Virus record (IMG/VR): IMGVR_UViG_3300031555_001469 | Strand: one strand, 5' to 3' | Origin: a virus | Taxonomy: Duplodnaviria; Caudoviricetes | DNA: 64,000 bases | Shown: positions 8,877-20,702 of the stretch, one piece after another | How positions within the stretch are numbered: the first letter of the stretch is position 1 | Layout: each line of letters opens with the position of its first letter | Made by a program: the position numbers and the translations under genes | The notes under the pieces: model-generated | The model's input: the letters and a program-made list of their open reading frames with translations, nothing else | The model's database searches: none | Told to the model about the DNA's origin: nothing

Positions 8877-9962
8877 TTAATCTGTACAAACGCTATCACA
8901 GTAGCAATTGTCATCACAACCACAGTCATAATCACATACACAATTGTAATTACAGCAAGTACCATTACAACAATTATAGTCGCATGTACAATCATTACCG
9001 CATCCATCTGCGCAGTCTCCATAACATCCACAGTCACTACCGCATCCATCCGGACAGTCATAATTACAACAGTCTTTATTACAAGAACAGTCTGTTCCAC
9101 ATCCGTCTGCACAATCACTATTACAAGAGCAATCTGAGCCACAACCATCTGCACAATCACTATTACAAGAGCAATCATAACAGTTATCATGTTGGCAATC
9201 TGAGTTACAGCAATCATAACATCCATCAAAATTACAACAATCGCCATTGCAAGCTCCATACCAAACATCTCCACAGTCATTACAATCTGTGCAATCAATG
9301 CATCCTTCTTGACAGTCTCTATTACAAGGACAGTCATTTACACAACAATCTGTTCCACATCCGTCTGCGCAGTCTCTATTACAAGAGCAATCTGAACCAC
9401 AACCATGTGCACAATCACTATTACAAGAACAGTCTGTACCGCAACCGTCTGAGCCGCAACCATGTGCGCAATTACTATTACAAGAACAGTCTGCACCACA
9501 TCCATCTGCGCAATCGTTATCACACGGGCAATTGCTATCACAATAACAGTCATATACGCAACAATCGTAACACTTATTACTATCACAATCACAGTCATAA
9601 TCACAGCAGTTATTATCACAACTACAGTTGAAATTACAACAATCCTGATAGCAACTACAATAATCCTTATACACAGATGCTTGTGTTGAAGATAGAGTAT
9701 TAACTTGGCTAGGAGACATACCGCTTATATCGGTTGGTAATGTACTACCTTTATAATAATAATTCATTCTATCACTACTATCTTTAATACAAGCATTAAT
9801 CTGATTAATCATATTAAGCAGATACTGTTTATTAACAACAGTACCAGACGTTAAAGTTGTTGCTGATCCTGAAAATCCATATCTATTATAAGTTTTAATT
9901 ACATTAGAATTTATGGTATTCATATCAGCAGCTGTTAATTTTTCACCTGACGATATAGCCAT
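8877..9962 (-). CDS. Cys/Asp-rich repeat protein (about 80 Cys), putative radical SAM modification target B
   Basis: About 100-aa Cys-poor N-domain, then repeats such as DCSCNSDCADGCG[ST]; directly downstream of a radical SAM gene; SD fits ATG 9962. Confidence 0.8.
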   Translation of the reverse strand: MAISSGEKLTAADMNTINSNVIKTYNRYGFSGSATTLTSGTVVNKQYLLNMINQINACIKDSSDRMNYYYKGSTLPTDISGMSPSQVNTLSSTQASVYKDYCSCYQDCCNFNCSCDNNCCDYDCDCDSNKCYDCCVYDCYCDSNCPCDNDCADGCGADCSCNSNCAHGCGSDGCGTDCSCNSDCAHGCGSDCSCNRDCADGCGTDCCVNDCPCNRDCQEGCIDCTDCNDCGDVWYGACNGDCCNFDGCYDCCNSDCQHDNCYDCSCNSDCADGCGSDCSCNSDCADGCGTDCSCNKDCCNYDCPDGCGSDCGCYGDCADGCGNDCTCDYNCCNGTCCNYNCVCDYDCGCDDNCYCDSVCTD

Positions 9963-9995: not shown

Positions 9996-11213
9996 TTATT
10001 CGTGTTTAGAACACTTACATTCTTTTTTACTAAGCTGTTCTATTTTTTCTTCTAATCGATTGCATCTCTTCTCTAAGTAATCGATCTTATTAACCATAGA
10101 CTCTAATAACTTACTTGTATTTCTTCGCTCAATGATATTAATAAATCTATAGTAGTGTTTATTAATAACCGTCATAAATTTCTCGTCATAATTATTAGGT
10201 CTAGTATATAAATCCCCACCAAATTCAAAGTTTACAGCTACACAAACCTGACAAGGATTATCAGACATCTTAGATTCATCAATAGCAGCAAATATAGCCT
10301 GAATTTCAGGATTAATAGGATTTTCATTATGAATATTTCCATATAAAACATCATTTCTTCTTTCAGAATTATAGAAGAAGAATCTATGGCAAGGATAGAT
10401 ATTTCCATCCGTATCCATTCCAACCATTCTTCTTCCTGAAGAACAACCAGAACATCTATCGAATCGCTTAAATGGGAATCTATTCTTATTCAACGTAATT
10501 TTAGATAAATCAGAATTAATCTTATCTAATTCTCTATCTAAAATAAGTACATCGTTATCGTCCCAATCATCTTCTATTACCCAAGCAAATTTAAAGTGAA
10601 CCTTTAAAGTTCTAATAAAATAAAGATAAGAATCATAAAGTCTTGGTAAAGAAGATTTAGAAATTACAGAATGAACGTGCAGTCTCTCATGAGATATATT
10701 GTGTTTGTCAAAGAATTCCTTAAACTTAGGAATAGCAGCTTCAACCAGATCAGAAGATTTAATACATGTATTAGCACATGGTCTATTACCATTCTGAATT
10801 TCTGGAATACCATCAATAGATAACTGAATATCTACATACCCAGTCAATCTGTACCACTCTTCTAAAAAGGCTTCAACCTTTTCATTATAAATAGTACCAT
10901 TAGTAATAATAGCAAACTTTATTTTAACACCAGTTTCTTTTTCTTTTTCTACACCATATCTAAGCATACTTATCATAAGATCAGTGCAGAGCATTGGTTC
11001 GCCACCAAAGAATGTAATATTAACAGTTCGCTTCTTATCGTTAGAAGCAATAGCATTTGCGACTAAAAAGTCAATCATTTTAAATGCAGTTTCTTCACTC
11101 ATATACTTTGAAACAGCTCTAGTATCCTTTTCAAAGCAATACGTACATCTTAAGTTACAGTTTTCTGTTAAAATAAAATAACAGGAAGTGATATTGGTAT
11201 CCATCATAACCAT
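9996..11213 (-). CDS. Radical SAM protein with SPASM/Twitch-like C-terminus (peptide maturase type), rSAM-2
   Basis: CNLRCTYC (CxxxCxxC), FFGGEP, SIDG, CSSG...DGNIYPCHRF, CQVC. Confidence 0.9.
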   Translation of the reverse strand: MVMMDTNITSCYFILTENCNLRCTYCFEKDTRAVSKYMSEETAFKMIDFLVANAIASNDKKRTVNITFFGGEPMLCTDLMISMLRYGVEKEKETGVKIKFAIITNGTIYNEKVEAFLEEWYRLTGYVDIQLSIDGIPEIQNGNRPCANTCIKSSDLVEAAIPKFKEFFDKHNISHERLHVHSVISKSSLPRLYDSYLYFIRTLKVHFKFAWVIEDDWDDNDVLILDRELDKINSDLSKITLNKNRFPFKRFDRCSGCSSGRRMVGMDTDGNIYPCHRFFFYNSERRNDVLYGNIHNENPINPEIQAIFAAIDESKMSDNPCQVCVAVNFEFGGDLYTRPNNYDEKFMTVINKHYYRFINIIERRNTSKLLESMVNKIDYLEKRCNRLEEKIEQLSKKECKCSKHE

Positions 11214-11991: not shown

Positions 11992-13026
11992 ATGTATATA
12001 GGAATAGATGGTATAGCAAGACTTATATCAAAATTATATATTGGGATCAATGGAATAGCAAGAGAAATAACTAAAATGTATATAGGAGTAGATGGATTAG
12101 CAAGATTAATATATCAAGCTGGCGTAGCAGCTGGTGAAGTAGTTTTTACTTCATCAAAATCTTGGACTGTGCCAGCAGGAGTTAGTAAAGTGGACATCTT
12201 CTGTGTAGGAGGTGGGGGTGGTGCAGGTGGCTGGTATTTTAGATACAATGAATCTAATAGTGCCGGTAGTTATACAGATACTACAAAAAATGGCGGTTCA
12301 GGTGGCGGTGGGTATACTACAACAGCATTAGCTGTAGCAGTAACACCTGGCGAAACTCTTACTATTACAGTAGGTGCTGGTGGTGATAGAGGCGAAAGCT
12401 ACGAATATTATAAATCATATGGTGAAACTGCACAACATTGGGGGTCCGTAACAAGTTCAGGTGACATTACAGCAGGAGCAACAGGTGGACAATCATCTGT
12501 TAAAAATAGCAGCGGTACTGTATTATGTAGTGCTAATGGTGGTTCTGGTGGTGCTAAAGCTACGACTGGTACATCATCTGGAGCTTCTTATGTATCAGCT
12601 GGAGGTGCTGGTGGTTCTGGTGGTGGTACTAGTACTGGTTGTTATTATGTATTTAATGGATCACAGGGAGATATTACAACTCATAGATCTTGGTTTAGTG
12701 CCGGTGGATCTACTGATATTTATAGAGCTGTAGATGGCGAAAGCGGCCCAAGTACTGAATATTATAGTGCATCATCAGATAGCACACCTAACGTTTATAG
12801 TAAAGGTGGTACAGGCCAGGGCACGACTACAAGATATTTTGCGCAATCTGGAGGTACGTTATATGGCTCTGGAGGTACTCAACCATATGATGCTACAAAA
12901 GTTTCTATAGGATATGGTCCTTGGGCTAATACAGGACATGGTGGCGGTTACGTATGGTATGATGGTTGGACTGGCGGATCTGCAGGATCTTCTGGTGTAG
13001 TTATCATTAGATGGGCTGCTCAATAA
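11992..13026 (+). CDS. Glycine-rich putative receptor-binding/tail-tip protein
   Basis: Three N-terminal YIG[IV][DN]G[IL]AR repeats; FTSS.SWTVPAGV..VDIFCVGGGGG, GGGG motifs, GSSGVVIIRW end. Confidence 0.65.
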   Translation: MYIGIDGIARLISKLYIGINGIAREITKMYIGVDGLARLIYQAGVAAGEVVFTSSKSWTVPAGVSKVDIFCVGGGGGAGGWYFRYNESNSAGSYTDTTKNGGSGGGGYTTTALAVAVTPGETLTITVGAGGDRGESYEYYKSYGETAQHWGSVTSSGDITAGATGGQSSVKNSSGTVLCSANGGSGGAKATTGTSSGASYVSAGGAGGSGGGTSTGCYYVFNGSQGDITTHRSWFSAGGSTDIYRAVDGESGPSTEYYSASSDSTPNVYSKGGTGQGTTTRYFAQSGGTLYGSGGTQPYDATKVSIGYGPWANTGHGGGYVWYDGWTGGSAGSSGVVIIRWAAQ

Positions 13027-13030
13027 ATAA

Positions 13031-13060
13031 AATCCCTAGTAGAGAAATCTACTAGGGATT
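13031..13060. terminator. Bidirectional terminator hairpin
   Basis: AATCCCTAGTAGA-GAAA-TCTACTAGGGATT between convergent genes. Confidence 0.75.
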
Positions 13061-13064
13061 AAAA

Positions 13065-15248
13065 TTATTTATATACTACATAAATAGTATCAGTTGCTAA
13101 AGCACTCGAACCAGCAGTTAAATCTGTCGTACCTTTAGTTATCGGTCTTAAATTATAGTCTGAATAATTTGCTGTATGGAGCACAACGTGATCTTTATAT
13201 GTGCCATCAGAAGCTACACATCTATATTGTAATCCATTTTTATCATTAGGCTGATAAGTGTAATTACAAACCAATAAGCCTCTATAAGCATTTTCTTGCC
13301 CAGGGGTAGTATAAGCTCGTACAGTAGCATGATTAGCATCCGCCAAGAATCTCCCATAGCCACTTTGTACAGCTATATTTCCAGTTAATGTACCACCACT
13401 CTTAGGTAATGCATAAGTGCTAATGTTTCCAGAGTGCACCATTGTAACATTACCTGTTGTATTACTATTGAAATCTATATGGAATGCTTTAGATATTGAA
13501 TTATGCGTAGCAAAGAATCTAATATGATTATCACATACATCAATGTGTACATCTTTATCAAATACATTATTAGTTTCTGGTTTAGCTAATACTATCTCTC
13601 CACCTTCGCTACCAGAAGCGGCCATTATATAAAGTCCACCAGTAAATGTAGTCTTTCCAGTAACAGTACCACCAGATGTTTTTAAATATGTGGTAGAAAT
13701 TTTATTTCCATCACCATCATTTAATGCTCTATTGGCATAGTACCAATTAGCTGGATTTTCTATAGTATGATCTACTGTAGTCATTGGGGTTATTGTATAA
13801 GACACATCCCAACCACTTCCCCAATCTTCATATTTATTACCCCAATGGCCTATTGTCACATCAGAAATTCTGATATTAGGATAAGACCATTGAGTATCGG
13901 AGTTACCAATCTGAACAACACATTGCCCCCCATTATTTCCAAAATGTACAGGTAAATTACTAATTGCTGAATTAGCAGCAGATCTGCTTATGGAATATGC
14001 TGATATACATTGCCAAATAACAGAATCTTTACATATATATCCAGCAACAAAATAATCACATGATTTATCTGGTTCAAAATCATATATGGAAATTTTGAAT
14101 TTAATCATAGTATAAGAATAGAATTGAGGTAGAGTAATTGTTAAATATCCAGTAACATTAGCTTCTTTAATAGAATAACTACCGCCTTCTGGATAAGCAA
14201 TATATCCATCTTTTCCTACAGCCGGCAATTGAATTTCGCCTGCTGTTTCTTCATCTAAAATTTTAAAATAATTTGCATTTACATCAAATCGGTATAAGCC
14301 AGTATACCCATCTCTCATTAATAAAGATCCGTAAGCTCCAGCTGCATTACCAAACTGAATTCCGGCATCACCGGTTGTTTCAGTTCTAAATAATCTCAGC
14401 ATAATTGGATCTGAATGGGCTATGCGTATAGAACCATTTATTATACCACCTGATAAAGGTAAGCAATACATGTCATAATTACCAGTATCTAAAATTTCTT
14501 CAGCTGTAGAGAAATCACTAGATGCTCGCACTAAATAGCCATTGCTAAATCCGATAGAACCCATAATTTTAGCTTTATTGGCAAAGGCGAGCATTGAAGT
14601 ATTATATTCACTAATATCATTAAGCATTAAAGGTATCATAGAAGCAGTTATTGCTTGCGAACCTATCACTTTAACTGCAGAGGAATCAATATTATCAATG
14701 GCTTCAGTAATAGTACTACCAATTGAACTAATGTCAGTATCTCCTATTTTTGTAATCAATTCTATTAAACTCTTTATAGCTTTAGAAATTGATCCAAATA
14801 AAGTTTTCATTGTACTTCCGGATGCAACTTCAGCCAAAGTTTCATCCTCAGTAAATTCTACCGTATTTGTACCTATGTCAGAATATTTTTCGACATAATT
14901 AAATAGATCTAAGTTAAATGCTTCTAATACTTGAGGCTCCTCTCCATCCCACCAAAAGTCAGGTGAACCCATATCTCTTATAAGAAAAGTATCACCTACT
15001 TTGAGTGTAGCAATATTCTCATCAGTTAACCAAGCCTCTAATTCATCTATTGTATCAAAAACACGTATTGTTGTAGCTCCTTGAGCCATCGATAATGCCA
15101 TTTTAGCATTTTGTGAACTTTCCTCCACTTCACTATACAATTTAGTTACATTGCTAGATAATGACTCTAAATTTATTTTGTCTTCTTTAGACATTAAACC
15201 ATCTCTAGCACCTGTAGCAAAAGATCTAGGGAAATTATTATGAAGCAT
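13065..15248 (-). CDS. Tail fibre protein A
   Basis: True start MLHNNF at 15248 (AAAGGAG SD); GLMSKEDK motif; repeated L..SGGT.TG fibre motifs; N-terminus paralogous to 19083..20702. Confidence 0.7.
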   Translation of the reverse strand: MLHNNFPRSFATGARDGLMSKEDKINLESLSSNVTKLYSEVEESSQNAKMALSMAQGATTIRVFDTIDELEAWLTDENIATLKVGDTFLIRDMGSPDFWWDGEEPQVLEAFNLDLFNYVEKYSDIGTNTVEFTEDETLAEVASGSTMKTLFGSISKAIKSLIELITKIGDTDISSIGSTITEAIDNIDSSAVKVIGSQAITASMIPLMLNDISEYNTSMLAFANKAKIMGSIGFSNGYLVRASSDFSTAEEILDTGNYDMYCLPLSGGIINGSIRIAHSDPIMLRLFRTETTGDAGIQFGNAAGAYGSLLMRDGYTGLYRFDVNANYFKILDEETAGEIQLPAVGKDGYIAYPEGGSYSIKEANVTGYLTITLPQFYSYTMIKFKISIYDFEPDKSCDYFVAGYICKDSVIWQCISAYSISRSAANSAISNLPVHFGNNGGQCVVQIGNSDTQWSYPNIRISDVTIGHWGNKYEDWGSGWDVSYTITPMTTVDHTIENPANWYYANRALNDGDGNKISTTYLKTSGGTVTGKTTFTGGLYIMAASGSEGGEIVLAKPETNNVFDKDVHIDVCDNHIRFFATHNSISKAFHIDFNSNTTGNVTMVHSGNISTYALPKSGGTLTGNIAVQSGYGRFLADANHATVRAYTTPGQENAYRGLLVCNYTYQPNDKNGLQYRCVASDGTYKDHVVLHTANYSDYNLRPITKGTTDLTAGSSALATDTIYVVYK

Positions 15249-15339: not shown

Positions 15340-16752
15340 TTATTTATCTTTTTCTTCACTTCTACGTTTAAGTTCTTGCCAAGTAATATCTCCTTTATAC
15401 TCCAAACTAGGAAGAGAAAGTAACATTTCAAATTCCTCTTCTGGAATAATTTTGAGAGCCCACTCTCTTGAAACGTATAAGTTATACCTATTTTCAGGCT
15501 CTTTAAGTTCATAGTATTTAGCCCAATAATAAGCATTTGCTAAAGCTCTTGCTTTATGCATTTCACAGATATATGTCGCACGCTTATTAGCAGTACCATA
15601 TGTCTGATAATTGTAAGCTGAGCACCATGAGCACCCATCTGCAATAGGGCAATAAAAGCATTCATCAGTACTCTGAGTTTTTCTATCAATACAATTTAAG
15701 CAATTGATATTACAAGAATAATCTTCGGAAGTACCAATACCTTCATCAACACTACCTATTCTTAAAGGTTTTCTTGAACAACCTAAAGAACTTTCCATAT
15801 ATCTAATACAAGGATAAAGATAACCATCTGGGTCACAGGCTAACATAAGGCAGTTACCACCACACCAATTTGTTATATCATCCTCATGTTTAGGTACAAA
15901 AAATTTCTCATCGAAAATGGATAAGAACACATCTTCAACCACATCTTTTTCAATTATATAATCAGCAGCTTGCTTTAACTGATAATATAATTCGGTAGCA
16001 TGGTGTTGTTCCCATCCTTCTTCATACACACAATTAGCATTAATATCTTTATAACCTAATTCAATCATGTGTTTTAAAGCAGAAAATACATGCTGTATAT
16101 TAGCCGGGGCAATAGTGATTTTACTTCCCATATAGTACCCTTTGGACATCCAATCTGTAGCACCAGCAATAGCAATATCATAGCTAGGAGATCCATCGTG
16201 GAATACTCTACAGCTATCATGCAATTCTTTATTCCCGTCTATTGTAATAGAAAAAGAAATATTGTTTTTATACTTATCTAAGAATTTCTGCACTCTTTCG
16301 TCAAAGTATAATACACCATTAGAGCAGATAGATATCATAAACTTATCAACCCATGGATGGTTCAATCTAATACATTCACGAAAGAAATAACTTACTATCT
16401 TATCAATTAACTCTATTTCTAAAAAAGGTTCCCCACCAATAAATTCAATTATAACAGCAGGAGATTTAGAAGGGTTAATATATTCATCAAATCCTTTTTC
16501 TCCACTAAGCAATAAATCGATAAATTTCTTAGCAGTTTCAAAAGACATTTTTCTTTGGCCTTTGTTAATCTGGTAGCAATAAGTACATGCCAGATTACAA
16601 GCGTCTGTTACCTGAAAAGTAACTGTACGAGATAAAGTAGAATTTGTTGATTTACCAGATTCATCTACTGTAACCAACTCAGGATATAATCTTGCAATCT
16701 TATCCTGATACTGTTCAAATTCTCGCCTGTTTCTTTTTCTCTCTCTAAGCAT
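15340..16752 (-). CDS. Radical SAM/SPASM peptide maturase, CXXX-repeat target type, rSAM-1
   Basis: CNLACTYC, FIGGEP, WCGG...DGYLYPCIRY, CFYCPIADGCSWCSAYNY...C; resembles the TIGR04115 family as I recall it; start 16752 overlaps the upstream stop. Confidence 0.9.
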   Translation of the reverse strand: MLRERKRNRREFEQYQDKIARLYPELVTVDESGKSTNSTLSRTVTFQVTDACNLACTYCYQINKGQRKMSFETAKKFIDLLLSGEKGFDEYINPSKSPAVIIEFIGGEPFLEIELIDKIVSYFFRECIRLNHPWVDKFMISICSNGVLYFDERVQKFLDKYKNNISFSITIDGNKELHDSCRVFHDGSPSYDIAIAGATDWMSKGYYMGSKITIAPANIQHVFSALKHMIELGYKDINANCVYEEGWEQHHATELYYQLKQAADYIIEKDVVEDVFLSIFDEKFFVPKHEDDITNWCGGNCLMLACDPDGYLYPCIRYMESSLGCSRKPLRIGSVDEGIGTSEDYSCNINCLNCIDRKTQSTDECFYCPIADGCSWCSAYNYQTYGTANKRATYICEMHKARALANAYYWAKYYELKEPENRYNLYVSREWALKIIPEEEFEMLLSLPSLEYKGDITWQELKRRSEEKDK

Positions 16753-17101
16753 TATGATCATCTCCTGATAATTCAAAGTTATCAAATGCTGTTCCGATTG
16801 TAGAGAATGTTAAAATACCAGAAGTAAAATCCAAGTTCCAATTTGCTACTGCATTAGCCTTCATGATTTCTTCTGGAATATAATTATTAATTAATTCGTT
16901 CTTTCCTAATTCATAAGCAGCAACTCTTTCATTATACTTCTTATTATAAAGAACAAATGTTTCAGATTCAAGAATAGCAGGGTTATTAGCATTATCTGTA
17001 ATAAGCTCCTTAATAATCCTTGACATTCCTTCAAGTTCGAAAGATAATCTTTCGAGATAATCTACAGTTTCACTATTTACTTTCATAGCAAAATTTTTCA
17101 T
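16745..17101 (-). CDS. Accessory protein of the CXXX-repeat modification system (TIGR04116-like, from recall)
   Basis: 118 aa helical protein ending in NWNLDFTSG; translationally coupled to rSAM-1. Confidence 0.55.
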   Translation of the reverse strand: MKNFAMKVNSETVDYLERLSFELEGMSRIIKELITDNANNPAILESETFVLYNKKYNERVAAYELGKNELINNYIPEEIMKANAVANWNLDFTSGILTFSTIGTAFDNFELSGDDHNA

Positions 17102-17152
17102 AATATAATTCTCCTTTTTATTTTATTTTAATAATAAGTTCGAGGCATAATT

Positions 17153-18103
17153 TTATATAGTTTTACCAGTAGCTCCCCCAAAGCATTGAGAGGTACAAGA
17201 AGTATTACATGTAGAACTACAAGTAGAGCTACAACTACTCTTACAATTTCCAGAACAACTACTTGAACATCCATAACATCCACCATCGCATCCAGAGCAA
17301 CCAGAACATGATCCACCGCATCCAGAGCATCCATAGCAGTCTCCAGAGCATCCGCTACCACAACCACTACTACATCCAGAACAACCAGAACATGAACTAC
17401 ATCCATCACATCCAGAGCAACTAGTACATTGCCATCCACATCCACCAGTACATCCGCCACCGCAAGAAGCACTACAGCCACTACTACAGTTAGCAGAACC
17501 ATCTGTTGATCCTGAACATGAACCTGTACAGCTAGTACAACCAGCACCGCATCCACCGCATGAAGAACAACCACTTCCGCATCCAGAGCATCCGCCGCAT
17601 CCACTACTACATCCACCACATCCAGAACATCCACTACATCCAGAGCATGAACCGCAGCCAGAACATCCCTTACAACCGTAAGTACAAGATGATCCGCAAC
17701 CAGAGCAGCCACCACATCCACCACATCCAGAACATCCACTACAACCAGTATTACACATACCATAACATAATCCAGTACATGCACCTCTACAAGAAGAAGA
17801 TGAACCTGTTACAGATTCAGCTGCCCATTTATCTAATACACTATTTAAAGTAGCATAGTCGAAACTAGAAGGCAATTTTTCTCCAGCAACGACATTTCTT
17901 AAATTACCTACGTCTGCTACTTTTAAAATTAAATCAATAGTTTTCTGCCCATGCTCCGCTAAAATTTTGCCGCCGGTAGCAGGACTAGTAGTAAAATCAT
18001 AAGTAGCAGCAGTATAACCACTTAGTGAGCCATAATATTGTCTTCTGGCAAACTCAGTTTTTATTTTTGCTTTTATCGCAATTAATTCAGACGGAGTCAT
18101 CAT
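17153..18103 (-). CDS. Cys/Gly/Ser-rich repeat protein (about 57 Cys), putative rSAM target A2
   Basis: About 103-aa Cys-free N-domain, then CxxC/CxxxC repeats ([10 protein letters not shown]). Confidence 0.85.
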
Positions 18104-18164
18104 AAGTATTATTTCCTTTCTTCTAATATAGTATTTATAGGATTCTTAAGTAAGTATAACCTAT

Positions 18165-18176
18165 TATTTAAATGTT
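18165..18176 (-). promoter_or_regulatory. Late-type promoter AACA-N6-TA for target A2
   Basis: Minus strand AACA-TTTAAA-TA. Confidence 0.55.
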
Positions 18177-18198
18177 TCTGTAGCCGATTCAGAGGTAA

Positions 18199-18229
18199 AT
18201 ACCAGAGTATCGTAATGATACTCTGGTAT
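18199..18229 (-). terminator. Hairpin after target A1
   Basis: ATACCAGAGTATC-GTAAT-GATACTCTGGTAT. Confidence 0.65.
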
Positions 18230-18235
18230 ATCCAT

Positions 18236-19057
18236 TTAACTTTTTGTTGATGTTCCATAACACTGTGCAGTACACGTACTATAACAAGTACTACTGCAAG
18301 TAGTATTACAGCTATTGATACATCCCGATGAACAGCTAGATGAACAGCCTCCTCCGCATCCAGAGCAGCTAGAACATCCGCTTGAACAATCAGCACATCC
18401 ATTACACCCGCTACAAGAACTACAATGACCATCACATCCAGCACATAGCCCTTGACAGCCATTTACGCATGTACTATAGCATCCTCCACTACACGTACTA
18501 GAACACATAGTACAATTAGCTTGACAGGCTCCAGAACATGACATACTACAACTGGTACAACCATTACAGCCAGAACATCCACCTTGACATCCTACTGAGC
18601 ATGTATTACCACAAGCTGTATCACATCCACTACATGTACCGCAACCTGTACATCCGTTACAACTATTTTCGCAACCTGAACACCCACTACATCCAGAACA
18701 AGTAGAACCACAAGTACCTACACATAAGCCAGTACATGCACCTCTACAAGAAGATGTAGCTCCGGTAATTTCTTCAGTTGCTAAAATGTCTACATAATTA
18801 ATTAAAGCTTCATCAAAACCACTCGGTATTAATAAACCAGTCGATACACTAGGTAATCCCTCATGATCTTTTATCTTTAATAGTAATTCAATAGTTTTTT
18901 GACCATGCTCTGCTCTTATTAATTCTCCTGCAATTGGAGTAAATAAAAAATCATAATTAGCAGACGTATAGCCAGCTAACGATCCATAGTATTTTCTTCT
19001 AGCAAACTCATCCTTAATTTTACTCTTTAGTGTAATTAGCTGAGCTGCTGATAACAT
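18236..19057 (-). CDS. Cys/Gly/Ser-rich repeat protein (about 46 Cys), putative rSAM target A1
   Basis: Paralog of 17153..18103 ([32 protein letters not shown]). Confidence 0.85.
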   Translation of the reverse strand: MLSAAQLITLKSKIKDEFARRKYYGSLAGYTSANYDFLFTPIAGELIRAEHGQKTIELLLKIKDHEGLPSVSTGLLIPSGFDEALINYVDILATEEITGATSSCRGACTGLCVGTCGSTCSGCSGCSGCENSCNGCTGCGTCSGCDTACGNTCSVGCQGGCSGCNGCTSCSMSCSGACQANCTMCSSTCSGGCYSTCVNGCQGLCAGCDGHCSSCSGCNGCADCSSGCSSCSGCGGGCSSSCSSGCINSCNTTCSSTCYSTCTAQCYGTSTKS

Positions 19058-19082: not shown

Positions 19083-20702
19083 TTAGGATACCATAATAAG
19101 TATCTTAACTTTTCCAATATCATCGGTATCTTTATTTTCTAAAGCTTTACCGATAATTGTTCCAGGAATAACAATATTTCTATCCTGAGTTATTCCTACA
19201 CCAGGTACATCTGAAGGGATAATAAGATCACCTTTAGATACAGTACCTTTTACTTTTACATATAATCGTCCTGCTAAACCAACAGGTACGAACTTCTTAT
19301 GGTTATCTTCCATATCTTCTAATTGTTCTCCTCCGACAATATGGCCATAGGAATCAGAATAAACACCAACGACCATAGTATCTCCATAACAACTAGATTT
19401 AGTTACACCAGATTCTGCCCAAGAGACAATATCTCCCGGTTCAAATTCTTCGTGTATATTCTCTTTCTCAAACCACTCGGCATAGTCGTTCCAAACTGCG
19501 TTGTAAACTTTACTACCAGTGATTGTACCAGAAGCATTAATAGCTCCAGCTTTAAAAGTTACAGAATTTATTGATAAAGTACCACTAGCAGATTCAATAA
19601 TTCTTGATGTATAATCTGCAGTAGAACTACCAAAATGGAAATCAATATATGGTGTAGCTGCAAAAAGCTCCATACATTGACTTTCGAAAGTAGTACCTTT
19701 AATTGTAGCAGCACAATAAAAACTCTTTCCGCCAGATACTTTTACATATGTAGTATCTTCCATAAAAATACCGCCACCATAAGTACTATTGTACCACCCG
19801 TTACTGTATATATTTGCACATTTAACTGGAGCGTTAGCTGCTCCATCTTGAGCCATAAAATTAAATACGCCTGTATTATCCATTAATAACGAAGCTGCTA
19901 TAACACCATTCCAATGGAATCCTATAGAAGGAGCATATCCTATTGTAGATTGAGTATTGCCAACTAATCCATTTTCTCTTATAGTTATGGCAGCATTGTT
20001 AAACCTATTTGCAGCTGTAGCTGTATATATACCGGCTGGTTCAAATAATCTTTTTCCGTTCATATTTATATCTCCAGTCATGATACCACCAGAGAGTTTT
20101 AAATATGATTTAGAAATATTACTAACTGCTTCAGATACGGTAGTACCTGAATCACTAACATCAGTAGATCCGACCCTAGCAATTAAACTTATTAAATCGC
20201 TTACTGCTTTAGAAACAGTAGCAAATAATGTAGTTAATTTACTTCCGCTACTAATTTTTGTTAATTCTGTAGCTTCTGTATAAGCAACCGTAGTATTGCT
20301 CGCATTTCCTGATAAAGTAAGATAGTCACTAAGATCCACTTTTTCTGTTTCAAGAATCTGAAGCTCTTCGCCATCCCACCAATAGTCAGGATTGTACATA
20401 TCTTTGATTAATAAAGTCGTACCTATTTTGAGTCCAGCTTTATTTGTCTCTACTGCTAACCATGCATCTAAATCAGCTTTGGTTTCAAATACAATAGCAG
20501 ATACTTTATCGAGCGCTGTTTGTAACGCTAAATTAGCTAAATCTTTTACTTCTGGAACTTCACCTAAAAGATAATCGATATCAGCCCTATTTTCAGTAAT
20601 ATTTTTTGGAAATGTGTTATCCACTAAATATTTATCTTCTTTAGACATTAACCCATCTCTTGCAGATGTAGCAAAAGATCTAGGCAAATTATTATGAAGC
20701 AT
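19083..20702 (-). CDS. Tail fibre protein B with C-terminal intramolecular chaperone (peptidase G2-like)
   Basis: MLHNNLPRSFAT..RDGLMSKEDK N-terminus; PYIDFHF...DYTSRI; WNDYAEWF...VGLAGRLYVKV...IIGKALE. Confidence 0.75.
   Translation of the reverse strand: MLHNNLPRSFATSARDGLMSKEDKYLVDNTFPKNITENRADIDYLLGEVPEVKDLANLALQTALDKVSAIVFETKADLDAWLAVETNKAGLKIGTTLLIKDMYNPDYWWDGEELQILETEKVDLSDYLTLSGNASNTTVAYTEATELTKISSGSKLTTLFATVSKAVSDLISLIARVGSTDVSDSGTTVSEAVSNISKSYLKLSGGIMTGDINMNGKRLFEPAGIYTATAANRFNNAAITIRENGLVGNTQSTIGYAPSIGFHWNGVIAASLLMDNTGVFNFMAQDGAANAPVKCANIYSNGWYNSTYGGGIFMEDTTYVKVSGGKSFYCAATIKGTTFESQCMELFAATPYIDFHFGSSTADYTSRIIESASGTLSINSVTFKAGAINASGTITGSKVYNAVWNDYAEWFEKENIHEEFEPGDIVSWAESGVTKSSCYGDTMVVGVYSDSYGHIVGGEQLEDMEDNHKKFVPVGLAGRLYVKVKGTVSKGDLIIPSDVPGVGITQDRNIVIPGTIIGKALENKDTDDIGKVKILIMVS

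Follow-up and report, generated by a model that had tools for sequence, protein, structure and literature searches.

We analysed a stretch of 64,000 nucleotides (the window) from the IMG/VR virus record IMGVR_UViG_3300031555_001469 (Duplodnaviria; Caudoviricetes). The window belongs to a viral record of 229.8 kb, for which CheckV gives a completeness of 93%. On its minus strand a co-directional block of genes runs from tail fibre B through two cysteine-rich proteins, A1 and A2, a 118-aa accessory protein and a radical S-adenosylmethionine (SAM)/SPASM enzyme to tail fibre A. A1 and A2 are the subject of this work. An earlier reading of the letters alone (in the following the original prediction) had described them as two paralogous enzyme substrates, each with a domain-sized N-terminal leader and a Cys-rich tail, and both open reading frames (ORFs) are present on the minus strand where it had placed them. 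The features of the block, in the order of their coordinates within the window, are:

13065-15248, minus strand: tail fibre A, directly downstream of the maturase; probable start MLHNNFPRSF, N-terminus as in fibre B
15340-16785, minus strand: radical SAM/SPASM maturase (P0004), CX3CX2C motif at C63/C67/C70, TIGR04115
16745-17101, minus strand: 118-aa accessory (P0003), conserved, between target and maturase
17153-18103, minus strand: A2 (P0001), 316 aa, from the ORF list
17153-17791, minus strand: A2 junction and Cys tract including the stop codon, 57 Cys, end cap QCFG
17792-18103, minus strand: A2 N-domain, residues 1-104, family profile 174.6 bits, AlphaFold model with a predicted local distance difference test score (pLDDT) of 90.2 and a predicted template modelling score (pTM) of 0.84
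18236-19057, minus strand: A1 (P0002), 273 aa, from the ORF list
18236-18748, minus strand: A1 junction and Cys tract including the stop codon, 46 Cys, end cap QCYG
18749-19057, minus strand: A1 N-domain, residues 1-103, family N-domain profile 173.8 bits, Cys-free, aligns with homologues
19083-20702, minus strand: tail fibre B, directly upstream of A1, with a C-terminal Peptidase_G2 intramolecular-chaperone domain (Pfam PF11962)

A1 and A2 are indeed paralogues: BLASTP aligned A2 to A1 with 42% identity (E 2e-58). The conserved N-domain, originally put at ~105 aa, measured ~104 aa, with 54% identity between the two proteins over 104 residues. The string K.KIK.EFARR.YYGSL.GYT.A.YDF and the junction that follows the domain are common to both, exactly as had been described. 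The N-domains contain no Cys; the first one is residue 104 in A1 and residue 105 in A2, and all 46 (A1) and 57 (A2) Cys are found in the tails. Within the tails the spacers between successive Cys are 2 or 3 residues long in 45 of 45 cases for A1 and in 55 of 56 for A2. The complete spacer strings are 333322232222333322233323333323222232233333333 for A1 and 33332222233222222232232232393333322222233322322323333333 for A2. Both tails open with four CxxxC, mix CxxC and CxxxC in between, finish with seven or eight CxxxC and then close in QCYG (A1) or QCFG (A2); the middle parts are of unequal length and arrange the two spacings in different orders, in agreement with the original prediction. When the residues of either tail were shuffled, none of 20,000 shuffles matched the observed share of 2- and 3-residue spacers (best shuffle 0.50-0.53 versus 0.98-1.0 observed). 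The residues between the Cys are almost exclusively Gly, Ser and Thr, with four Asp/Glu per tract.

The DNA of the A2 tract consists of imperfect tandem repeats with periods of 9, 12, 18, 21, 27 and 30. All periods are multiples of three, which suggests that the tract grows by slippage of CxxC/CxxxC units. The N-domain DNA of A1 and A2 differs at many synonymous sites, indicative of an old duplication with both copies under selection. With 61%, A2 resembles the one copy in the related contig L009 more than it resembles A1. Alternative-frame ORFs over the Cys tracts (17128-17784 and 18109-18462 on the minus strand, 17560-17853 on the plus strand) were rejected as genes: they are rich in Val, Asp, Leu or His and are by-products of repetitive TGT/GGT/AGT codons.

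A search with a profile of the N-domain returned 516 clusters, built at 50% identity, with E<=1e-3; 276 of them reach E<=1e-10. The genes of A1 and A2 are thus real. Members of the N-domain family occur on 74 IMG/VR contigs, 5 to 190 kb in length, and in 30 bacterial genomes, almost all from Bacillota (Lachnospiraceae, Oscillospiraceae, Eubacterium, Neglectibacter, Anaerolentibacter, Emergencia). The cultured strains Neglectibacter timonensis SN17, Eubacterium pyruvativorans i6 and Anaerolentibacter hominis CSJ-1 carry the cassette; the family protein of E. pyruvativorans i6 is a short one of 141 aa. Of 110 sequence sets, 102 had a TIGR04115-type radical SAM enzyme in the flanking DNA that was retrieved and 98 had a ~110-aa accessory between target and enzyme; the sets that miss them are mostly short or cut contigs. 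The gene order of target, ~110-aa accessory and radical SAM/SPASM maturase is fixed. In a single case, a myo-type contig (L118:4001-5005, P0015), target and accessory form one 334-aa ORF after Baseplate_J/gp48-like genes; this in-frame fusion may be an assembly error.

Counted across 99 distinct members of the family, Cys spacers number 5,416, and 5,206 of these have a length of 2 or 3 residues (3,302 of three and 1,904 of two residues). CC and CxC spacings account for 19 of the 5,416. In 91 of the 99 proteins the tract opens with the spacers 3-3-3-3, and most tails finish in a CxxxC run plus QC[FYW]G. Tail length varies from 21 to 547 residues, with 6 to 144 Cys. As the features of the A1/A2 pair recur over these 99 proteins, they read as rules of the family. 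Tandem paralogues are rare: the 229.8-kb record holds A1 and A2 as its only copies, and beyond this window a second copy was found only in L001 and L015, in both of them not adjacent to the first. The phage-like cassette contig L001 additionally encodes, at L001:6269-7181 and 9437-9961, homologues of TatA and TatC and, just upstream of its target, a 174-aa protein with a Tat-signal-like N-terminus.

The enzyme of the block matched NCBIfam TIGR04115 (rSAM_Cxxx_rpt, 'radical SAM peptide maturase, CXXX-repeat target family') with 499.4 bits at a cut-off of 350, residues 53-420 aligning to profile positions 2-359 of 359. The next-best models were those of PapB (166 bits), the SCIFF maturase (99 bits), QhpD (98 bits) and CcpM (95 bits), all of which are thioether formers, while the anaerobic sulfatase maturase model reached 52 bits. 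C63/C67/C70 are followed by a Cys-rich SPASM region, CDPDGYLYPC ... CFYCPIADGCSWC ... C, and the alignment with the SPASM enzyme CteB (5WGG, E 9.5e-19) reaches residue 423 of the maturase. Only ~50 residues precede the radical SAM core. The alignment with CteB starts at CteB residue 94, opposite residue 50 of the phage enzyme, and the profiles of relatives with a recognition element (RRE) for peptides that are synthesized by the ribosome and modified after translation (RiPPs) align to it only from positions 81-91. From this short N-terminus and the late alignment starts it follows that the maturase has no RRE. The TIGR04119 domain was not found on it either. Three orthologues in other contigs (L009:4825-7212, L013:10269-13814 and L073:9865-12330) carry ~310-aa in-frame inserts of intein/Hint and LAGLIDADG families, with two of these inserts in L013; the enzyme of the window has none. 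The phage has a second Cys-rich substrate, which is served by another radical SAM enzyme and is without the N-domain. Inside the second radical SAM gene of the phage (9996-11213) lies a weak match to TIGR04119 (CXXX_matur; 21.7 bits, window 10074-10457, minus strand), the only one in the genome.

The model of the accessory protein (pLDDT 86) shows a single strand, a pair of long helices and a beta-hairpin at the C-terminus, which is not a winged-helix RRE. Alignment by hhalign with three canonical TIGR04116 proteins, the associated proteins of the CXXX-repeat system, gave a probability of 38% (E 3.3e-4) over 46 C-terminal columns, and a C-terminal motif W-x-[IL]-D-F-x-T is common to both; they also agree in gene position and in size. 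Homology between the accessory and the TIGR04116 proteins is likely on these grounds. Pfam, NCBIfam and PHROGs contained no family for A1, A2 or the accessory (hmmscan, none at E 10).

That the leader is domain-sized agrees with structure prediction. The N-domain alone, modelled by AlphaFold from an alignment of 81 sequences, gave a confident fold with the scores listed above: a compact body of five short helices with long ordered loops. Foldseek against the PDB returned nothing at E<=0.001, a wide VIA-align search gave generic helical matches with a best Z of 5.0, and profile searches of the N-domain and the accessory against PDB sequences gave nothing below E 0.1. As far as the model can tell, the domain is without a convincing solved structural relative. 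Its nearest ESM Atlas cluster is named 'Modification target Cys-rich repeat domain-containing protein' (template modelling score, TM, 0.67 and 0.85 by query); 54% of this cluster is viral, and 47% of its members carry PF27846, which precomputed tables place on longer relatives and not on most relatives of near length. When longer proteins were searched by sequence and profile for the N-domain on other shafts, only Cys-rich PF27846 proteins occurred among the matches listed.

The most conserved part of the target is the junction, with the consensus SSSC-x3-C-x-G-L-C-x3-C: C105, C109, G111, C113 and C117 are invariant in the 81 sequences and L112 is also among its most conserved positions. Helix 1 (E17, R20, R21) comes next, then G25 and P41. 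The junction has no double-glycine cleavage site. A predicted complex of N-domain and accessory, with both supplied as alignments, scored 0.08 versus a mark of 0.32, a result that we counted neither way.

The cassette sits in the tail module. In sipho-type contigs it comes after the TMP-Dit-minor tail genes, in the myo-type contig after Baseplate_J/gp48 and in other lineages after tail or tail-fibre PHROGs; in 27 other loci its neighbours are phage structural or lysis genes. In the window the fibres A and B flank it. Their first 24 residues are nearly identical (MLHNN[FL]PRSFAT[GS]ARDGLMSKEDK) and diverge thereafter; fibre A, with its probable start, extends from 13065 to ~15248. A C-terminal chaperone domain of the fibre B type also immediately precedes the Cys-ladder gene in L009, L070 and L079. 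The maturase ORF overlaps the end of the accessory gene, its likely ATG start lying a few codons inside the ORF. At 13031-13060 the block ends in a bidirectional hairpin of terminator-like appearance, and inside the block no minus-strand terminator was convincing. A1, A2, the accessory and the maturase would be expected in one late transcription unit with both tail-fibre genes. The hairpin is shared with a glycine-rich protein (Pfam Gly_rich_2; window 11992-13026, plus strand) that is convergent with fibre A.

Several family members extend beyond the Cys tract. P0161, P0069 and P0118 carry non-Cys globular C-terminal domains of 170 to 400 aa after it. In a group of ~60-kb phages with 47 loci (L016-L062), a distal tip is fused to the tract in 18; in 8 a stop or frameshift separates the two, and 21 give no match to it and have another tip instead or none. 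The tip measures ~175 aa and lies at about 9060-9600 of each locus. This pattern could reflect exchangeable receptor-binding tips on a stalk, phase variation or repeat assembly errors being alternatives. Neither the C-terminal tips nor the N-terminal extensions of some members belong to a Pfam or PHROG family, save for a weak phrog_27282 match of one extension. Protein-sized cores with fused globular domains fit an uncleaved structural product better than a released peptide.

From the anatomy of the targets and their surroundings we infer an uncleaved docking domain followed by a thioether-stapled stalk of a tail-associated protein, a reading that we hold with moderate confidence. A1 and A2 would be substrates the size of proteins, acted on by the CXXX-repeat maturase that the phage itself encodes together with the 118-aa accessory. 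The ~104-aa N-domain and the invariant junction would most likely dock the substrate onto this RRE-less pair, taking the place of the short leader of ordinary RiPPs. The maturase would then probably act on the regularly spaced Cys (one per three or four residues) to form a ladder-like series of small thioether rings, i.e. a stiff stalk that resists proteases and redox changes. That the rings are thioethers is probable as judged from the relatedness of the enzyme only. The finished protein probably remains whole, is incorporated into the virion and acts in the tail or host-recognition apparatus.

The original prediction had left open whether the uncleaved N-domain in front of a modified filament serves enzyme recognition, virion anchoring or both. 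Its general outline is supported in part, by the folded domain, by the coupling of this domain to Cys tail, accessory and TIGR04115 enzyme and by the missing protease and exporter; between the two roles the evidence leans to enzyme docking. Docking is favoured because the maturase has no RRE, because the accessory does not have the fold of one and because the second Cys-rich substrate of the phage, which is served by another radical SAM enzyme, does without the N-domain. The target-accessory fusion of P0015 and the precedent of the archaeal pair CrpC/CrpA (see below) point the same way. Moreover, the N-domain is conserved while the neighbouring tail proteins are unrelated across phages, which leaves the accessory, the radical SAM enzyme and the N-domain itself as candidates for its conserved partner. 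An uncleaved product is favoured by the lack of a protease, exporter or double-glycine site, by the protein-sized cores, the fused globular domains and the exchangeable tips; the chaperone domain of the fibre B type upstream of the target in three other contigs argues for a structural one.

A rather unlikely alternative, although the strongest, is that the N-domain chiefly serves as a head for virion anchoring or oligomerisation, by which the stalk is inserted into baseplate or fibre, while the enzyme reads the CxxxC junction only. This would account for the constant position of the cassette within the tail module and for the fibre-like N-terminal extensions or C-terminal tips of some members. 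It is also consistent with weaker Atlas neighbours of the N-domain, phage Flg_new/fn3 proteins with a TM of 0.57-0.65 over 85 residues, and with a canonical short target that has a 4-Cys CxxxC motif and no N-domain, such that the repeat alone can suffice for this enzyme family. However, a pure anchor would hardly be conserved next to tail proteins that are unrelated between lineages, and no relative of the N-domain was seen on a non-Cys shaft or apart from a radical SAM gene among the matches listed. The other Cys-rich substrate of the phage, made without the domain, likewise speaks against anchoring as its main role.

It is improbable that the Cys stay free and bind metal, in the manner of metallothioneins or of a Fe-S/Zn wire, or form disulfides while the radical SAM enzyme carries out a limited reaction, e.g. 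at the junction only. CxxC and CxxxC with Gly/Ser are classic metal-binding spacings and the invariance across the family is confined to the first four CxxxC, as this idea would have it; yet the Cys tract was never seen without radical SAM enzyme and accessory, CC and CxC are strictly avoided unlike in metallothioneins, and the nearest characterised enzymes all form thioethers. Least probable of all is a classical RiPP in which a long leader of the NHLP/Nif11 type is cleaved and a Cys-rich peptide (bacteriocin, signal or metal binder) is freed at lysis, since the leader/core-like layout, the otherwise short exported peptides of this enzyme family and the relatedness to ranthipeptide maturases are set against cassettes with no protease, C39 domain or exporter in or beside them (the window unit and the examined loci), a junction that offers no double-glycine site, cores of up to 547 residues and 144 Cys and globular domains fused beyond the core in some members.

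Several results weigh against the docking domain and stapled stalk that we prefer. In A1 and A2 themselves nothing follows the QC[FY]G cap, and they have no distal tip domain. Among GenBank phage isolates no relative of the N-domain was found, and the GenBank phages contained just two relatives of the radical SAM enzyme, distant and uncultured. The fold search with the accessory returned generic helical hairpins only (best Z 7.8), and the TIGR04116 hidden Markov model (CXXX_rpt_assoc) did not match it even at E 10. The modelled likeness of the N-domain to the Flg_new/fn3 proteins is a hint that it may be a generic head domain of fibres and not a dock for the enzyme; among the matches listed by single-sequence and profile searches, this link had no sequence support. 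Finally, with four Asp/Glu per tail, Cys-Asp/Glu links of the PapB or QhpD type are excluded as the main product. Acceptors would have to be Gly, Ser, Thr or backbone carbons, the serial use of which is unmatched among the characterised relatives.

Extended to the family, the proposal becomes more tentative: we consider it possible, and no better than that, that phages of gut Bacillota possess a new kind of fibre shaft, a thioether-ring ladder of up to ~140 Cys in which a leader domain replaces the RRE-leader pair and the tips are exchangeable. If the fibre-shaft reading is true, RiPP chemistry serves as structural virion chemistry and not as secreted-peptide synthesis. Many gut phages would then use radical SAM thioether chemistry to staple a structural protein, so that such chemistry is not only used by bacteria for peptide products, and phage tail biology would gain a new post-translational modification. 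It would also account for the prophage gene set that is labelled 'ranthipeptide cluster' in genome mining. Next to CrpA, the N-domain would be a second example of a SPASM enzyme recognising its substrate at the level of a domain, and docking domain, repeat and enzyme would together provide a modular system for long cross-linked polypeptides. The particular value of this window lies in the paralogue pair and its clear two-part anatomy.

No published study of the phage cassette was found in the literature. Among characterised enzymes PapB, which acts on PapA (freyrasin), and CteB, which acts on SCIFF, are closest by profile score and PDB sequence. PapA receives serial small rings on a repeated Cys motif (CX3D). 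PapB and CteB differ from the phage system in that short leader peptides are bound by an N-terminal RRE and Asp or Thr are the acceptors, whereas the phage tails are nearly free of Asp/Glu. Ranthipeptides and sactipeptides are RiPPs with Cys-derived thioether cross-links, an RRE-bound short leader and a protease and/or exporter; of the last two the phage cassette has neither.

For substrates of protein size two systems can be compared. CrpC, a SPASM radical SAM enzyme of Methanococcus voltae, modifies CrpA, a Cys-rich protein, with thioethers (Dieter et al. 2026, PMC13692751). The N-terminal domain of CrpA helps enzyme engagement, CrpB has the same N-terminus, and metal binding has been considered for CrpA (PMC13692751), a point that also lends some weight to the free-Cys alternative. 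As in the phage, a SPASM enzyme acts on a large Cys-rich protein and paralogous substrates combine a common N-terminus with differing repeats. In contrast, CrpC belongs to the TIGR04463 subfamily, for which the phage maturase scores 52.8 bits at a cut-off of 525, and has an RRE, which the phage maturase lacks. The repeats of CrpA are 17 or 34 residues long with C-x-x-Q/D, and the host is an archaeal cell with no virion context. QhpD, a radical SAM/SPASM enzyme, forms thioethers in a protein subunit, QhpC, that is kept within a larger assembly (PMC13692751). It resembles the proposed phage system in that the modified protein remains in an assembly, and the QhpD model is among those matched by the phage maturase. 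QhpD differs in making three links only, to Asp/Glu, in recognising its substrate by leader and RRE and in yielding an enzyme subunit with no repeat stalk.

The CXXX-repeat system comprises the TIGR04115 maturase, the TIGR04116 associated protein, TIGR04114/04117/04118 targets, the TIGR04119 domain and the Pfam PF27846 repeat. Its definition is bioinformatic, and no published biochemistry was found for it. The phage cassette resembles it in the maturase above the TIGR04115 cut-off, the three-gene order, the small accessory adjoining the radical SAM gene and the CxxxC run in the target. The curated target models gave 7.1 bits for TIGR04114 (cut-off 20) and no match for TIGR04117 and TIGR04118 on the phage target. 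Canonical TIGR04116 loci were sought in Clostridia, where 4 of 399 genomes were over the cut-off. One complete locus encodes, beside a 728-aa maturase and an ATP-binding cassette (ABC) transporter, a peptide of 57 aa that contains CVLVCVNSCRYSC; in another the accessory lies beside a long maturase and an ABC transporter. These cellular loci thus combine a short peptide, a maturase with a C-terminal extension and a transporter, whereas phage cassettes have no such peptide or transporter. Instead they present a 104-aa folded N-domain, 46-57 Cys, mixed CxxC/CxxxC and a tail-fibre neighbourhood. In addition the phage maturase is without TIGR04119, and accessory and targets miss all curated models. 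Judged by sequence, the phage cassette is a distinct variant of a family that is catalogued (TIGR04115, PF27846) and uncharacterised, with the core enzyme alone, a helper that diverges and a target protein built from two parts.

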